Positions 19,314 through 25,861 of a stretch of DNA of 64,000 nucleotides are shown here, one piece after another. This DNA is from Oscillospiraceae bacterium. GTDB lineage: Bacteria > Bacillota > Clostridia > UMGS1883. The stretch is from contig SVJW01000006.1 of the NCBI GenBank assembly GCA_015068735.1, forward strand, positions 519 to 64,518, given 5' to 3'. Both the position numbers and the translations under genes were made by a program. The notes below the pieces were generated by a model. It did no database searches. It had not been told where the DNA came from and was given only the letters and a program-made list of their open reading frames with translations. The number at the start of each line of letters is the position of its first letter. Within the stretch, counting starts at the first letter, position 1.

Positions 19314-19425
19314 ATTAGACGGTAATTAGAAATATTCACTTTTGTGAGTGTTGAAATGTGCACTATCGGCCCGCGATAGAGAAGGCACATATATATTTTG
19401 TGGGCAGAAAGGCTATGACCGTAGT

Positions 19426-20625
19426 ATGGCAAACACAGAAAGAAAAGTAGGCACAGTATCAAGAGGTATCCGTTGTCCCATCATCCGTGAGGGAGATGAC
19501 CTTGCCGCAATCGTAACTGAGAGCGTTCTCGACGCAGCAAAGAGCGAAGGATTCGAACTTCGCGACCGTGATGTTATTTCTATTACAGAATCCATCGTAG
19601 CGCGTGCACAGGGTAACTATTGTTCTGTTAACGATATTGCAGCGGACGTAAAGAACAAGCTTGGCGGAGAAACCGTTGGTGTTATTTTCCCCATCCTTTC
19701 CAGAAATCGTTTTGCAATCTGCCTTAAGGGTATTGCAATGGGTGCAAAGAAAATTGTTCTTATGCTCAGTTATCCTTCTGATGAAGTTGGTAACGAACTT
19801 GTAAGTCTTGATAAAATTGATGCTGCAGGCATTAATCCTTATTCCGACGTATTAAGCCTTGAAATGTATAGAGAGTATTTTGGTGAAAACAAGCACGAAT
19901 TTACAGGCGTTGACTATGTTGAATACTACGGCAATCTTATAAAGGAATGCGGTGCAGACGTTGAAATCGTTTTCGCAAATCAGGCGAAGACAATTCTTAA
20001 TTATACAGACTGTGTAATTAACTGTGATATCCACACTCGCGCAAGAACCAAGAGAATTCTTAAAGATTTAGGTGCAAAGGTTGTTTGCGGTCTTGACGAA
20101 ATTATGAATGCTCCCGTAAATGGTAGCGGATGTAACGAAAAATATGGCCTTTTAGGTTCAAACAAATCTACAGAAGACAAAATCAAACTTTTCCCAAGAG
20201 AGTGTAAAGATCTTGTTCTTGATATTCAGGCACGAATTCTCAAGGAAACAGGAAAGTACGTTGAAGTTATGGTTTACGGTGACGGTGCATTTAAGGATCC
20301 TCAGGGTAAAATATGGGAGCTTGCAGACCCGGTTGTTTCTCCTGCATTTACAGACGGTCTTGTAGGTACACCCAATGAGCTTAAGCTTAAGTATCTTGCA
20401 GATAATGACTTTGCAAATCTTTCCGGTGAAGAGCTTAAGAAAGCAATTTCCGAAAGCATCAAAAACAAAGGGGACAACCTGGTAGGTAATATGGCTTCCC
20501 AGGGAACAACTCCCAGACAGCTTACAGACCTCATCGGTTCGCTTTGTGACCTTACAAGCGGTAGCGGTGATAAGGGTACACCCGTGGTACTTGTTCAGGG
20601 TTACTTCGACAACTACACAAACTAA
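19426..20625 (+). CDS. CofE-like (F420-0:gamma-glutamyl ligase family) protein
   Basis: RGIRCPIIREGDDL, ITESIVARAQG, C-terminal DLTSGSGDKGTPVVLVQG typical of clostridial CofE-family proteins. Confidence 0.85.
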   Translation: MANTERKVGTVSRGIRCPIIREGDDLAAIVTESVLDAAKSEGFELRDRDVISITESIVARAQGNYCSVNDIAADVKNKLGGETVGVIFPILSRNRFAICLKGIAMGAKKIVLMLSYPSDEVGNELVSLDKIDAAGINPYSDVLSLEMYREYFGENKHEFTGVDYVEYYGNLIKECGADVEIVFANQAKTILNYTDCVINCDIHTRARTKRILKDLGAKVVCGLDEIMNAPVNGSGCNEKYGLLGSNKSTEDKIKLFPRECKDLVLDIQARILKETGKYVEVMVYGDGAFKDPQGKIWELADPVVSPAFTDGLVGTPNELKLKYLADNDFANLSGEELKKAISESIKNKGDNLVGNMASQGTTPRQLTDLIGSLCDLTSGSGDKGTPVVLVQGYFDNYTN

Positions 20626-20635
20626 ATAATTGTAC

Positions 20636-20672
20636 AACAAAAGGAGTCGCAAATGCGACTCCTTATTTGTTT
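20636..20672. repeat. 37-bp direct repeat, copy A (palindromic terminator)
   Basis: aacaaaaggagtcgcaaatgcgactccttatttgttt, identical to 21055-21091. Confidence 0.95.
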
Positions 20673-20729
20673 GTTATGAAATGATTAAACTGTTTAGTGC
20701 CAAAAAATGTACGTCCCCAAAGAGGCGCA

Positions 20730-20805
20730 AATAAAAAGAGGACCAACGACTGGTTGGCGAGTACTGGGCTTAAGATGCCGTTCCATCCAACTACATATGG
20801 TCCTA
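20730..20805 (-). ncRNA. Candidate small RNA 2 (~75 nt)
   Basis: TTGACA(20839-34)-17-TATCTT(20816-11) promoter, closing stem AGGACCA/TGGTCCT, inner GTTGG/CCAAC, then TTTTTATTT. Confidence 0.6.
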
Positions 20806-20869
20806 TTAACAAGATAACATATAGCGATGAATATGTCAAGACTCGTTTCGGGACATACATCTCTATATC

Positions 20870-20963
20870 AAAAAAATAGAAGGAAACATTGGTAGTCCGT
20901 GGAACCTTGAAAAAGGCTCGAACCCGTCTACGACGGCGCGGCACACCGCTGATGTTCCTTCAA
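20870..20963 (-). ncRNA. Candidate small RNA 1 (~90 nt, multibranched)
   Basis: TTGATT(20997-92)-17-TAAACT(20974-69) promoter, closing stem GAAGGAACAT/ATGTTTCCTTC, internal hairpins CCGTC-GTA-GACGG and CCTT-TTTC-AAGG, then T7. Confidence 0.6.
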
Positions 20964-21054
20964 CTAAAAGTTTACCACAGTCAATAGAAAAAATCAATAG
21001 AAAATCCGTAACTGAAACAACATTTCAGGACGTGTTTCTTTGGCTCGCTTTCAG

Positions 21055-21091
21055 AACAAAAGGAGTCGCAAATGCGACTCCTTATTTGTTT
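21055..21091. repeat. 37-bp direct repeat, copy B (overlaps the araC stop codon)
   Basis: Identical to 20636-20672. Confidence 0.95.
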
Positions 21092-21873
21092 ACCAAAGAA
21101 TACTTTTTCGGTGTTATTCCTTTTATTTTCTTAAAGACAGCGGCAAAGTAATTACTGTCATTAAAACCGCAGAGGAAAGCAATTTCCGTTATCGAAAGAT
21201 TTGTTGTCACAAGAAGCTTTTCTGCAGCAGCCACACGGGTGATATTTATATAGTCGCTTAGCCCGACGGAAGTGAGCTTTTTAAACTGCTTTGAAAGGTA
21301 GTTGGGAGTTATGGCAAAATGCTCTGAAAGCACTTTAAGAGACAAATCTTCTGCGTAGTTTGATGAAATATATTTTGCCACGTCCTGAATAAGTTGGTGA
21401 GAGGGAGTTTCTTTTTCTGATGATTCTTCTGCTCTGTGGCGCGAAATAAGTATAAGAAGTTCTCGCGTATACAGATTTTGCATATCACGATAACCGATTT
21501 TTTTGTCGTTTTCTTCTTTTTCAATTTTATACAACAATTCCGTTACCTTGTTGTGGTATTTACCTTTTATTATTATATGCTTATTTTCAAAAAGTTCATC
21601 GATATACTTCAGGAGATTTTCGCCTACGTCATTTTCATCAAAAAACAGTAGCACTCTTTCCGCATCACTTGTTGTTTTGTGGTAGACATTTTTGGGAATA
21701 AAAATCATTTCCCCGGGTTTGATGGTAAAAAGCTCATCCTCGATAAAATATTTTGTACTGCCCTCTACAAGGTAATAAAGCTCGTGTTTATCGTGATAGT
21801 GCATATAGGGCATATCTACCATAAAAGGATGTTTAACTTTTTCGTAAATCATAGGATTTTTGCTTGCAGGCAT
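21082..21873 (-). CDS. AraC-family transcriptional regulator
   Basis: Cupin MHYHDKHELYY, C-terminal HTH ITEIAFLCGFNDSNYFAAVFKKIKGITP; divergent from GH4. Confidence 0.95.
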   Translation of the reverse strand: MPASKNPMIYEKVKHPFMVDMPYMHYHDKHELYYLVEGSTKYFIEDELFTIKPGEMIFIPKNVYHKTTSDAERVLLFFDENDVGENLLKYIDELFENKHIIIKGKYHNKVTELLYKIEKEENDKKIGYRDMQNLYTRELLILISRHRAEESSEKETPSHQLIQDVAKYISSNYAEDLSLKVLSEHFAITPNYLSKQFKKLTSVGLSDYINITRVAAAEKLLVTTNLSITEIAFLCGFNDSNYFAAVFKKIKGITPKKYSLVNK

Positions 21874-22013
21874 ACAATCACCTCTGATTAGATTATACAC
21901 AAAAATCGGCAAATGTAAATAATATTTTCTTGTTTTTTCTTAAAATATGCAACTTATTTATAGAAAACAATATAAAAATACAGTATGATAAAATCATAGA
22001 AGGAGGAGGTTAT

Positions 22014-23414
22014 ATGAATTACAACGGTAATAAAGCAGAAAATGTGAAAATTGCATATATAGGCGGTGGTTCACGCGGTTGGGCGTGGGGACTTATGAGT
22101 GACCTTGTAAATTGCGATGATATGTCGGGTAGCGTATATCTGTACGACATTGATATGGAAGCTGCAAAAAGCAATGAAATTATAGGTAACAAATTCAATG
22201 ATGCAGAGGGTGCAAAATCACATTGGGATTATTTGGCTGTGGAAACTATTGAGGAAGCTCTTAACGGTGCGAATTTTGTAGTTATATCCATTCAACCGGG
22301 AACATTTGATGAAATGGAGTCAGATGTTCACGCACCTGAAAAATACGGCATTTATCAGTCTGTCGGAGATACATCCGGTCCCGGTGGTATCATCCGCGCA
22401 ATGCGTACGGTTCCTATGTATGAATTCTTTGCGGAAAAAATCAAGGAATGTTGTCCCAAAGCGTGGGTAATCAATTACACAAACCCTATGACGCTTTGTA
22501 CGAAAACACTCTACCGTGTATTTCCTGAAATAAAAGCATTCGGATGTTGCCACGAAGTATTCGGTACACAGAAACTTTTAGCATCTGCTCTTGAAGATTA
22601 TTGTGGTATAAAAGATATAAAAAGAGAAGAAATAAAGGTTAATCCTGTAAGTGTAAATCACTTTACATGGCTCACTTCTGCAAAATACAGGGATATTGAT
22701 GTATTCCCAATATATAAGAAAATGGCAGAGGAGTACGCTGAGGCGGGTTACCTCAAAGGCAAGGACGATAACTGGATGAACAGCGTTTTTGCCTGCAGTC
22801 AGAAAGTGAAATTTGACCTTTTTAACCGTTACGGTTACATAGCGGCGGCAGGTGACCGTCACCTTGCCGAATTTTGTGAAGGAAAATGGTATCTTGAATC
22901 ACCGGAAAAAGTAAGAGAGTGGGGATTTAATCTTACGCCGGTGAGCTACAGGAAAGAAAACCTTGTAGAAAGAATGGAAAGAAGTGTACGCCTCAAAAAT
23001 GGTGAGGAAAAGCCTGAAATCAAGCTTACAGGGGAAGAGGGCGTGCGTCAGATGAGAGCGCTTCTCGGACTTTGCGAATTTGTTACAAATGTAAATATTC
23101 CAAACTATGGGCAAATTCCCAATCTTCCCATTGGTGCAGTAGTTGAAACAAATGCCGTATTTACATCGGATAGCGTGACCCCTGTATTTGCTGGTGAAAT
23201 ACCATCTTCAATTTATCCTCTTGTTTCAAGAATTTGCGGAGAGCAGGAGGAAGTGAGCGAGGGGATTGCACAGCGTGATTTGGGAAGAATTTTCAATGCA
23301 TTTGCAAATGATCCTCTCGTAACTTGCAGTTATGCTGACGCAAAGAAACTGTTTAAAGAAATGATTGAAAATACAAAAGAATATCTTACAATGTATGATT
23401 TAAATACGATATAA
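22014..23414 (+). CDS. GH4 NAD+-dependent glycosidase, probable alpha-galacturonidase (LplD-like)
   Basis: IGGGSRGW, QSVGDTSGPGG, NYTNP, GCCHEV; the CHEV motif marks GH4 alpha-galacturonidases; RBS aggaggaggt. Confidence 0.88.
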   Translation: MNYNGNKAENVKIAYIGGGSRGWAWGLMSDLVNCDDMSGSVYLYDIDMEAAKSNEIIGNKFNDAEGAKSHWDYLAVETIEEALNGANFVVISIQPGTFDEMESDVHAPEKYGIYQSVGDTSGPGGIIRAMRTVPMYEFFAEKIKECCPKAWVINYTNPMTLCTKTLYRVFPEIKAFGCCHEVFGTQKLLASALEDYCGIKDIKREEIKVNPVSVNHFTWLTSAKYRDIDVFPIYKKMAEEYAEAGYLKGKDDNWMNSVFACSQKVKFDLFNRYGYIAAAGDRHLAEFCEGKWYLESPEKVREWGFNLTPVSYRKENLVERMERSVRLKNGEEKPEIKLTGEEGVRQMRALLGLCEFVTNVNIPNYGQIPNLPIGAVVETNAVFTSDSVTPVFAGEIPSSIYPLVSRICGEQEEVSEGIAQRDLGRIFNAFANDPLVTCSYADAKKLFKEMIENTKEYLTMYDLNTI

Positions 23415-23417
23415 TTG

Positions 23418-23457
23418 AAACTGTCTGCGGGAATATACATTCGCAGACAGTTTTTTT
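23418..23457 (+). terminator. Intrinsic terminator
   Basis: aaactgtctgcgg...tcgcagacagttttttt. Confidence 0.75.
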
Positions 23458-23459
23458 GT

Positions 23460-23488
23460 TTGACAAACAAGGAATAATATATTAAAAT
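23460..23488 (+). promoter_or_regulatory. SigA promoter of the ccdA operon
   Basis: TTGACA-17 bp-TAAAAT. Confidence 0.7.
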
Positions 23489-23504
23489 ATAAAGTAGACA
23501 GGAA

Positions 23505-24194
23505 GTGATTATTTTGCAGTATCTGGCTACCTTTTTAGAAGGAATAATTTCATTTATTTCCCCTTGTATGTTGCCAATGTTACCAATTTATATTTCATAT
23601 TTTGCAGGTTCTGCTGAAGAAAAACGGCATCCTCTCCCGAGAGCTATCAGCTTTGTTCTTGGATTTACGCTCGTTTTTTCGATGATGGGGCTTTTTGCAG
23701 GAACGATAGGGTCTTTTCTTACTCATTACAGGTCCTGGGTTAATATTGTTTGCGGCATTATTATAATTTTATTCGGTTTTAATTTCCTTGGAATTATAAA
23801 ATTACCCGTAATTCACTCCGCTCATAAAAGTGTGAAAATAAAAGGACTTTTTTCAGCATTTTTATTTGGAATTGTTTTTTCAATAAGCCACACTCCTTGT
23901 ATCGGCGTGTTTTTAGGAAGTGCATTGACAACTGCGGCAGCTTCAGGAATGGTAATGAGTGGGTTTTTGCTTCTGCTTGTCTATTCTCTTGGTATGGGAA
24001 TTCCTTTTTTGCTTGCAGCGGTACTGGTTGATAAATTGACAGGACTTTTCAATTCTATCAAAAAGAACTACAATGTGATAAACATAGTATGTGGATTCTT
24101 TCTCGTTTTAATGGGAATATTTATGATGCTGGGTTGGATGAACGGCTTTGTTGAAATGCTTGATACAGCAGCGCATTCATCTCATAATCATTGA
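23505..24194 (+). CDS. ccdA: CcdA/DsbD-beta transmembrane electron transporter
   Basis: SFISPCMLPMLPIY and TPCIG motifs, about 6 TM segments, YSLGMGIPF. Confidence 0.92.
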   Translation: MIILQYLATFLEGIISFISPCMLPMLPIYISYFAGSAEEKRHPLPRAISFVLGFTLVFSMMGLFAGTIGSFLTHYRSWVNIVCGIIIILFGFNFLGIIKLPVIHSAHKSVKIKGLFSAFLFGIVFSISHTPCIGVFLGSALTTAAASGMVMSGFLLLLVYSLGMGIPFLLAAVLVDKLTGLFNSIKKNYNVINIVCGFFLVLMGIFMMLGWMNGFVEMLDTAAHSSHNH

Positions 24195-25411: not shown

Positions 25412-25485
25412 GCGGGTGTAGTTCATTGGTAGAACACCAGCCTTCCAAGCTGGATAGGTGGGTTCGATTCCCATCACCCGCTCCA
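25412..25485 (+). tRNA. tRNA-Gly(TCC)
   Basis: gcgggtg acceptor stem, anticodon loop cttccaa, GGTTCGA, encoded CCA. Confidence 0.96.
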
Positions 25486-25506
25486 CTTTTTTGCCACAAA
25501 TTACAC

Positions 25507-25583
<77 letters not shown>

Positions 25584-25589
25584 CATTAT

Positions 25590-25667
25590 GGTGGGTATAG
25601 CTCAGTTGGTTAGAGCGCTAGATTGTGGCTCTAGAGGCCGAGGGTTCGAGTCCCTCTATCCACCCCA
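25590..25667 (+). tRNA. tRNA-His(GTG)
   Basis: G-1 plus gtgggta, loop ttgtggc, T-loop, CCA. Confidence 0.95.
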
Positions 25668-25703
25668 CTTTTCCACCTGAGTTGCAATCCAGCATATAGA
25701 TGT

Positions 25704-25780
25704 TGGGCTGTAGCCAAGTCGGTTAAGGCACCAGACTTTGACTCTGGCATCCGCAGGTTCAAGTCCTGCCAGCCCAGCCA
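25704..25780 (+). tRNA. tRNA-Gln(TTG)
   Basis: tgggctg acceptor stem, loop ctttgac, CCA. Confidence 0.95.
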
Positions 25781-25785
25781 TATAC

Positions 25786-25861
25786 GGGCCATTAGCTCAG
25801 TCGGCAGAGCACTTGACTTTTAATCAAGTTGTCCGGGGTTCGAATCTCCGATGGCTCACCA
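25786..25861 (+). tRNA. tRNA-Lys(TTT)
   Basis: gggccat acceptor stem, loop cttttaa, CCA. Confidence 0.95.

Follow-up and report, generated by a model that had tools for sequence, protein, structure and literature searches.

The window analysed here, a stretch of 64,000 nucleotides of contig SVJW01000006.1 (positions 519 to 64,518; GenBank assembly GCA_015068735.1) from an Oscillospiraceae bacterium, carries at positions 20636-21091 a cassette whose minus strand holds two short promoter-to-terminator units, termed unit 1 and unit 2, with the predicted products RNA1 and RNA2 (Table 1). These units are very probably orphan members of two antisense RNA families that are linked to ribonuclease (RNase) domains of the BECR fold. 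Relatives of both lie antisense within giant genes for polyvalent proteins, RNA1 directly behind a PBECR3 domain and RNA2 at the end of a MuF_C domain, and neither domain was found in the genome that holds the window (G000). The cassette itself, which had been predicted from the letters of the window alone, is confirmed as a real feature, and the interpretation that came with this original prediction is partly supported. We consider the finding to be more interesting than an ordinary intergenic oddity, the function of the RNAs being a proposal.

The predicted architecture of the cassette holds in its details. Two exact direct repeats of 37 nucleotides, 100% identical and each carrying the araC stop codon followed by a palindromic terminator, bracket an insert that had been put at about 380 base-pairs and measures 382. 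The palindrome in each repeat forms an 11-base-pair stem that is terminator-like on both strands. By direct reading, the minus strand of the insert contains two complete units separated by approximately 30 nucleotides, whose predicted RNAs of about 94 and 76 nucleotides are unrelated to each other in sequence, as originally stated, and recur in other genomes, where promoter, stems and T-run are preserved. The description of the cassette as free of protein genes is also right for the window, as evident by a 93-codon minus-strand frame (20663-20944) that yields no Pfam match and by plus-strand frames that are broken across the insert.

Each RNA is predicted to be closed by a stem that would also serve as its terminator stem. 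In RNA1 this stem is formed by GAAGGAACAU and AUGUUUCCUUC and is followed by T7 at 20876-20870, and an inner helix (GGUG/UACC plus CCG/CGG) carries two hairpins, CCGUC-GUA-GACGG and GAGCCUU/AAGGUUC. The fold has 31 pairs, three of which show a compensatory change among three sequences, and its minimum free energy gives a modest z-score of -2.38 relative to shuffled sequences. RNA2 has the closing and terminator stem GGACCA/UGGUCC, the helix GUUGG/CCAAC and the apical hairpin GGC-AUCUUAA-GCC, with a likewise modest z-score of -1.55. The apical loop reads AUCUUAA in the window, AUGUUAA in genome G075 and AAUUGNA-like in most relatives. Most RNA2 copies present GGC-AAUUGNA-GCC, in which the palindrome CAAUUG reaches from the edge of the stem across the loop, and the window copy carries CUUAAG there. 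Such palindromic loops could permit loop-loop dimers.

Relatives of the two units were sought by BLAST among genomes of the genus and order. RNA2 homologues were found in G075 (93% identity), G015 (85%), G071 (84%), G020 (77%), G005 (70%) and G083 (69%), and RNA1 homologues in G036 (82%) and G014 (80%). The searches recovered each unit separately, and homology extends only from the -35 box to the T-run. The promoters of the unit 1 homologues read TTGACT-17-TATACT and TTGACT-17-TATATT. To describe the families, two models were defined in this analysis: R1, the MuF_C-associated antisense RNA family, comprises a TTGACA-17-TAnnnT promoter, stems, a hairpin with a 7-nucleotide loop and a T-run, and R2 describes the PBECR3-associated antisense RNA family. 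Model R1 matches the window at 20727-20810 on the minus strand with 93.2 bits (E = 1e-20), a score that is partly circular in that the window sequence helped to build the model. Support for the family membership of RNA2 that is independent of R1 comes from its identity of 85% to the G015 copy and 93% to the G075 copy. Window RNA1 agrees with the fold described by R2, with its closing and terminator stem, its two hairpins and a first stem of five base-pairs with a 3-nucleotide loop. Matches to the RNA2 model occur in 14 of the 87 genomes of the order, and to the RNA1 model in three.

Most of the homologues are positioned antisense within open reading frames (ORFs) of 887 to more than 2,600 codons. 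Pfam searches identify these giant ORFs as polyvalent proteins with ART-PolyVal, LPD3, MuF_C and PBECR3 domains, and one study (Iyer 2017, PMC5512222) describes the MuF-C and PBECR modules of phage and conjugative-element proteins as having the BECR fold and as being RNase or RNA-binding modules. Coding sequence at this region in relatives had been listed with the original prediction as an outcome that would refute it, and this is indeed what is observed, with the units nested antisense within the polyvalent coding sequence. The placement of the units is highly regular. In all nine distinct embedded copies checked, the RNA2 unit has its 3′ end over the last, C-terminal residues of MuF_C, and the same reading phase relative to MuF_C (phase 0) is kept in eight of eight. 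RNA1 lies 14 residues behind PBECR3 in G014 and in G036, and a fourth member of its family, in a genome of another bacterial family (G387, locus L127), scores 87 bits and lies approximately 38 nucleotides behind PBECR3. PBECR had been listed in the original prediction among the neighbours worth looking for, and this expectation was borne out.

This association is also seen across the class Clostridia. A draw of about 400 Clostridia genomes yielded 24 MuF_C matches in 22 genomes, and 22 of the 24 are accompanied by an antisense TTGAC[AT]-17-TAnnnT promoter, a stem-closed RNA of 63-73 nucleotides and a T-run. A long stem closes each of these RNAs, whose apical hairpin is rich in G+C and has a 7-nucleotide loop, mostly AAUUGGA, and the T-run ends within -22 to +14 nucleotides of the MuF_C end in 21 of the 22; the ORF at locus L141 stops inside the domain. 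PBECR3 matches were present in 37 of 399 Clostridia genomes, and a unit of the RNA1 design is carried by 10 of the 11 PBECR3 domains that reside in ORFs of at least 262 amino acids. ORFs holding the partner domains range from 262 to more than 3,000 codons. One example is an ORF of 3,599 codons in G014 (contig C5, locus L030), which contains three antisense units, located behind its first MuF_C, its second MuF_C and its PBECR3 domain. Two of the three promoters are perfect 12/12 matches to TTGACA-17-TATAAT (L030 4353-4381 and 5832-5860), each of them just behind a MuF_C, the third is a 10/12 match with TG, and a stem-closed RNA that ends in a T-run follows every promoter.

The window units are regarded as orphans because neither MuF_C nor PBECR3 was found in G000, whereas the same search was positive in G014, G015 and G036. 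Window RNA1 thus differs from its homologues in G014, G036 and G387 in that no PBECR3 domain adjoins it. The two domains were likewise not found in G075 and G020, which hold stand-alone RNA2 units, all of these assemblies being incomplete. Among 16 RNA2-family matches with E < 1e-5, eight are embedded, seven are stand-alone and one is unclear, and no domain relics were found beside the stand-alone units. Orphan loci number seven including the window, and they lie between housekeeping genes. The named neighbours are a LexA-type peptidase and PGA_cap, a PLP enzyme and EF-G/YacP, a GltD-like oxidoreductase and a Na+/H+ antiporter, and PheT and a TPR protein; at the G020 and L077 orphan loci most neighbours are without a Pfam match. 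At five of the six other loci, at least two different units follow one another on the same strand, all equipped with a TTGACA-17 promoter and a terminator of their own, and therefore the window pair is one case of a recurring arrangement. No relatives of the other units in these arrays were present among the loci examined.

The window units could nevertheless be functionless relics, left over from a polyvalent gene or from DNA that had been copied out of such a gene, in which promoters and terminators are intact only through recency. We hold this to be the main rival reading, and an unlikely one. It would agree with the natural home of both families inside polyvalent genes, with the RNA2 loop of the window being off the family consensus, with the weak promoter of unit 1, and with the identical 37-base-pair repeats and an empty allele at about 98% identity, which imply that the event was young and the cassette dispensable. 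However, there is no domain-coding trace beside the units, and homology ends exactly at the promoter and at the T-run. Moreover, the G014 counterparts of the window units are approximately 1.2 kb apart with two domains between them, in contrast to the roughly 30 nucleotides that separate the units in the window. Six other genomes also hold orphans whose stems are intact, placed between housekeeping genes and mostly in tandem, and the closest relative of window RNA2 is itself an orphan (G075, 93%) rather than an embedded copy (84-85%).

Metagenome data reveal that the cassette is polymorphic. The insert is single-copy in G000, with one copy of each unit. Runs X1 and X6 contain the occupied form, and one X1 contig spans 20643-21084 with no differences. 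A 680-nucleotide contig of run X10 aligns to 20500-20638 followed by 21058-21597, differing from the window at 13 of 679 letters. Its joint from 20638 to 21058 skips 419 bases, with 34 letters common to both sides, and the X10 read depth is 0 across 20670-20857. Run X10 thus holds a near-identical strain (about 98% identity) with an empty site that retains a single 37-base-pair copy, precisely the kind of relative that the original prediction had proposed to look for. The cassette is a 419-base-pair insertion/deletion polymorphism at the araC terminator, which may reflect either insertion with duplication or loss by recombination between the repeats. In run X7, one contig matches the window to 20721 and continues with 211 unlike letters, another matches from 21049 after 70 unlike letters, and the depth is 0 over both RNA units. 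This seems to be a third allele, judging from these joints, in which 20673-20721 are kept, the RNAs are gone and other sequence lies between. Different strains may hold different inserts at the araC terminator site. The 31-nucleotide core of the repeat, sought with up to three mismatches in the 87 genomes of the order, was found only in G000, where it occurs twice.

Another possibility is that the units are selfish modules. Such modules would be independently mobile, entering terminators between genes and, with the frame kept, giant ORFs, much like the palindromic elements that insert into coding genes. Their discrete boundaries, their patchy distribution (RNA2 in 14/87 and RNA1 in 3/87 genomes), their presence both within ORFs and between genes, the 37-base-pair duplication flanking the window copy and the existence of an empty site could all be accommodated by this proposal. 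We nonetheless judge it to be quite improbable, as evident by the position, strand and phase of the embedded units, which stay constant relative to the domain across deep divergence and point to co-descent with the domain rather than repeated insertion. In addition, no terminal inverted repeats are present on the insert, whose ends show no inverted repeats besides the terminator palindromes, each unit is single-copy in G000, and the remaining orphan loci showed no duplications at their flanks.

Embedded units are translated on their opposite strand. With 16 RNA2-family sequences aligned to R1, 94.4% of the cells are paired compared to 79.3% in shuffles and 21-59% in slid controls, and double changes affect 9 of 16 pairs (41 cells), a result reached by none of 500 shuffles; fitting the alignment to R1 favours structure somewhat. 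In an independent MAFFT alignment of 10 RNA2 sequences, compensatory changes occur in 5 of 16 pairs. The covariation in the stems of homologues that the original prediction called for is therefore present. Among eight embedded copies, the entropies at codon positions 1, 2 and 3 are 0.86, 0.48 and 1.30 in the MuF_C domain, 0.49, 0.58 and 0.84 in the RNA unit, and 0.89, 0.82 and 1.02 in the promoter. The -35 box TTGACA is kept in all eight despite varying encoded residues, and the apical-loop codons CAA-TTG-CCG are unchanged in seven. Together, the RNA2 covariation, the third-position constraint and the invariant -35 box show that the nucleotides themselves are under selection, and the antisense promoters of the G014 ORF and the class-wide recurrence of the units point the same way. 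Read on the opposite strand, the RNA2 apical loops encode the peptide LQLP. For the PBECR3-linked family, the 13 units have diverged too far to be aligned by sequence, so that MAFFT/RNAalifold returned no consensus structure, and folds were examined per sequence instead. The shape [[][]] is predicted for 11 of the 13, compared to 8-19 of 100 shuffles, with z-scores from -0.8 to -6.3.

If the sense strand were the level under selection, the conserved feature would be a linker peptide (KKRT..WL..LQLP; PSTTA.HTAD) or a structure of the giant-gene mRNA, such as a frameshift or pausing signal, and the antisense gene would be illusory. The units are indeed translated within the giant ORFs into a moderately conserved peptide, and the count of wobble pairs favours neither strand. 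However, near-consensus promoter boxes at a fixed spacing and a T-run, which are meaningless on the sense strand, are kept in 22/24 and 10/11 cases, synonymous sites are constrained, and the A-run is not a conserved slippery heptamer (AAAAAT, AAAAAC, AAAAAA). The orphan copies also keep the fold without any ORF. In the window, peptides matching those of the giant ORFs of relatives fall in two different broken frames of the plus strand. This reading is left as a very improbable one.

That the RNAs are tRNA-like decoys, with RNA1 mimicking a T-arm and RNA2 the anticodon arm of tRNA-Lys(CUU) to soak up anticodon nucleases, can hardly be entertained: anticodon loops are a target of BECR RNases, colicins D and E5 among them, according to Iyer (2017, PMC5512222), and the loops AUCUUAA of the window and AUGUUAA of G075 fit U33-NNN-A37-A38, but ARAGORN finds no tRNA in the cassette, Rfam gives no tRNA match there at E up to 10, the T-loop-like GGTTCGAG of RNA1 is GGGCCGAG in G036, and the AAUUGNA loop of most RNA2 family members is without U33. 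Both motifs had been pointed out in the original prediction; they are present in the window and are not conserved in the families, and the decoy idea built on them is not supported.

We propose that the cassette comprises two autonomous small-RNA genes, each with its own sigma-70-type promoter and intrinsic terminator, and that the home of each family is the antisense strand of a polyvalent gene, in the linker that immediately follows a BECR-fold RNase module. Transcription by the host RNA polymerase would yield a short, structured RNA there, which would be the cognate partner of the RNase segment and would most likely serve as an antidote or regulator of the adjoining module. Such a role is suggested by the siting of a host-type promoter within a phage or plasmid effector gene, exactly at the back of each RNase module. 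The window units would then be cognate antidote or regulator RNAs that have been orphaned, a proposal to which we assign an even chance of being right. The anatomy of the units, their family membership, their place beside the domains in relatives, the nucleotide-level selection, the orphan status and the empty-site allele rest on observation, whereas transcription, an antidote role and its mode are proposed. The simplest mechanism, and our first choice, would be base pairing between the RNA and the complementary linker in the giant mRNA, much as for lambda OOP or for type I antitoxins with a 3′ overlap. As a second choice, the RNA might bind the RNase domain itself in the manner of a type III antitoxin. 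This mode is favoured by the conserved apical hairpin that every domain family retains as its own despite deep divergence, and it is weakened because the same bases encode the conserved LQLP peptide. Chromosomal orphans would then act in trans as an RNA-based defence against incoming elements with the matching domain, by analogy with orphan immunity genes. An extension of this proposal, which is speculative and unlikely, holds that gut Clostridia keep chromosomal RNA-cassette arrays as an immunity repertoire in which each RNA is the antidote to one RNase module (MuF_C, PBECR3 or another) that phages or conjugative elements inject within polyvalent proteins, and that the elements encode these RNAs backwards in linkers and thereby protect their own host.

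Several observations weigh against the proposal that the units are antisense RNA genes serving RNase domains. G-U and A-C pairs number 11 and 8, which does not decide the folding strand, and so the strand is assigned from the orientation of the promoter and the T-run alone. The promoter of unit 1 matches 8 of 12 consensus positions, is weak and is not listed by a consensus scan. The RNA1 family has four close members with few compensatory changes. Window RNA2 has lost the AAUUGNA loop of its family and may be drifting, or may be tuned to an unseen partner. Two MuF_C domains without a unit belong to short proteins that end 6-14 residues past the domain, and a convincing unit accompanies none of 19 stand-alone PBECR3 proteins (119-165 amino acids), and therefore such an RNase domain does not always come with an RNA of this kind. 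Pfam and PHROGs searches of the neighbours of the giant genes returned nothing that fixes the element as phage or conjugative. The cassette is dispensable, because it is missing from a near-identical strain. Finally, because the G000 assembly is 88% complete, a matching domain could be present in the cell and unassembled.

The 19 stand-alone PBECR3 proteins (L098-L126) outscore the embedded domains by far on the Pfam model. No conserved downstream ORF that could represent an immunity partner was found behind their genes. These proteins may form a separate, possibly host-owned branch.

Searches for the units in other collections were negative. BLASTN in distant mode with both units gave no match among phage and plasmid records, exact-pattern scans of viral contigs for both RNAs gave none, and the same was true of an exact-pattern scan of metagenome contigs for RNA1. 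An Rfam 15 search of window positions 20400-21300 returned 13 matches, all below the gathering threshold, the top match being a terminator hairpin with 22.2 bits compared to a gathering threshold of 50. The check for membership in a known Rfam family that had been suggested with the original prediction therefore gave a negative answer for this interval, and 12 loci with related units likewise produced no Rfam match at gathering.

The genomic surroundings of the cassette are summarized in Table 1. Its neighbours are the CofE-like, AraC, GH4 and CcdA genes. Downstream of the CofE-like gene in the closest relative, G013, come that gene's own terminator and, immediately after it, CcdA/DsbD (84% amino acid identity to window 23505-24194), and similarity to relatives in the CofE-like region stops at about 20625-20634. 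Compared to G013, window 20626-23500 holds approximately 2.85 kb of extra DNA, consisting of the cassette, araC and the GH4 glycosidase gene, and araC is absent altogether from this site in the nearest relatives. The extra DNA looks like a small sugar-use islet.

Table 1. Coordinates of the cassette, its two RNA units and neighbouring features in the window
Feature	Position	Strand	Description
Unit 1 promoter	20969-20997	-	TTGATT (20997-20992)-17-TAAACT (20974-20969), TGG before -10; read directly
RNA1	20870-20963	-	About 94 nt; closing stem also the predicted terminator stem; U7 tail
Unit 2 promoter	20811-20839	-	TTGACA (20839-20834)-17-TATCTT (20816-20811), TG-extended; 10/12 by consensus scan
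RNA2	20729-20804	-	About 76 nt; T-run 20737-20733 within the U-run 20737-20729
Insert	20673-21054	-	382 bp; with one repeat copy, the 419-bp indel
Left 37-bp repeat copy	20636-20672		Duplicate of araC tail and palindromic terminator; 10 nt past the CofE-like stop
Right 37-bp repeat copy	21055-21091		araC stop codon (21082-21084), final two codons and terminator
CofE-like gene	19348-20625	+	F420-0:gamma-glutamyl ligase-like; flanks the cassette
AraC-family regulator gene	21082-21912	-	Flanks the cassette
GH4 glycosidase gene	21930-23414		Beyond araC
REP-like repeat	20697-20727	-	31 nt; gCCAnTTGGGGACGTACATTTTTTGGyA family; separate multi-copy element within the insert, 3′ of unit 2

The REP-like repeat in the insert was seen in 40 distinct instances among the loci examined, including G000 contigs C33, C46 and C56 (L034-L036) and many relatives. 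Its copies often form inverted pairs approximately 45 nucleotides apart or are preceded by short iterations of GCCATTTGGGGA. At locus L055 the repeat is followed downstream by a pair of Y1 transposase genes (Pfam Y1_Tnp) of the IS200/RAYT-like kind, and at L047 and L059 (G070) a second repeated motif, GAACCGTCCCCTGTG, stands alongside it before a series of small unannotated ORFs. Classification of the cassette itself as a miniature inverted-repeat transposable element, an insertion sequence or an integron cassette was rejected, given that it has no terminal inverted repeats, has a 37-base-pair duplication, has the CofE-like, AraC, GH4 and CcdA genes for neighbours and occurs once in the genome. 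A transposon, an integron cassette or a REP/RAYT event was also considered as the route of insertion, and no supporting feature was found. ARAGORN locates five tRNAs in the window, all at 25412-25861 (Gly-TCC, Arg-TCT, His-GTG, Gln-TTG and Lys-TTT), which form an ordinary cluster.

Polyvalent proteins make up a large class of effectors that phages and plasmids inject, a class on which hardly any tests have been made, and how the producing cell tolerates their RNase modules is a question that the nested RNAs touch. A conserved, dual-coded small-RNA gene behind nearly every embedded MuF_C or PBECR3 domain in the Clostridia sampled would be a new layer of polyvalent-protein biology, and the unannotated RNA families of gut bacteria would grow by a considerable number. 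If the extended proposal of an immunity repertoire is correct, the RNAs would be a counterpart of toxin-immunity pairs and of orphan immunity genes, and multi-domain effector genes could in this way hold an antidote for each toxic module while the reading frame remains uninterrupted. In view of the orphan copies, bacteria may gather RNA antidotes as they do orphan immunity proteins, and the occupied and empty alleles suggest that such units move between genomes as discrete modules. As short, self-contained genes, the orphans could be expressed in trans against a cloned domain.

The polyvalent proteins with PBECR and MuF-C described by Iyer (2017, PMC5512222) provide the same protein context as that of the embedded units. 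The available part of that text contains no occurrence of antisense, noncoding, non-coding or small RNA, and the nested units are not part of its description to that extent. Likewise, the available part of a 2026 BECR preprint (10.64898/2026.08.28.747851) has no occurrence of antisense, RNA antitoxin or type III. Our literature search found no publication describing nested antisense units, with supplements, which may hold relevant tables, lying outside the search. What is new here is the family linked to MuF_C, together with the counts across the class, the tandem arrays of orphan units and the pair of occupied and empty alleles.

Among known systems, lambda OOP offers a close precedent, being a short RNA, transcribed constitutively from a promoter of its own to an intrinsic terminator, that is antisense to the end of a phage coding segment and is generally held to pair with the mRNA. 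The embedded units resemble it in that they carry a promoter and terminator of their own and are antisense to a coding segment. By the same sequence features they qualify as countertranscripts, whereas the window copies have no target in cis, neither MuF_C nor PBECR3 having been found in G000. The units differ from OOP, however, in residing inside a giant ORF that continues and is translated through on the other strand and in forming families tied to particular RNase domains, with several units possible per gene and with chromosomal orphans. Type I toxin-antitoxin systems of Firmicute prophages, such as txpA/RatA and bsrG/SR4, employ an antisense RNA that overlaps the 3′ end of the toxin gene and is made from a host-type promoter. 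The embedded units are similarly placed 3′ of the toxic segment and have a host-type promoter, but the putative toxin would be an RNase domain in a protein of more than 1,000 amino acids rather than a small hydrophobic peptide.

In type III toxin-antitoxin systems such as ToxIN and AbiQ/antiQ, a structured RNA is partnered with an endoribonuclease, and a structured RNA is likewise the predicted partner of an RNase domain here. The original prediction had compared the cassette with the RNA antitoxins beside ribonuclease toxins, namely type III, AbiF and DUF3800-associated RNAs. The part of this comparison that stands is that the window holds orphan RNAs of a ribonuclease-linked kind, whose relatives sit behind PBECR3 and MuF_C, two domains that were not found in G000. 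The architecture does not stand, as the units are instead nested antisense in giant polyvalent genes. They form no array of identical repeats, the two window units being unrelated in sequence; in relatives they lie downstream of the RNase segment on the opposite strand, whereas a ToxI-like RNA precedes its toxin gene on a shared strand; and the RNase fold is BECR, not ToxN. For the tandem orphan units, the closest analogy is provided by the orphan immunity genes of polymorphic toxin systems, reportedly described by Zhang et al. in 2012. Both are antidote-type genes, putative ones in the present case, arrayed without a cognate toxin, although orphan immunity genes encode proteins and lie by toxin cassettes, whereas the units described here are putative RNA genes scattered between housekeeping genes.

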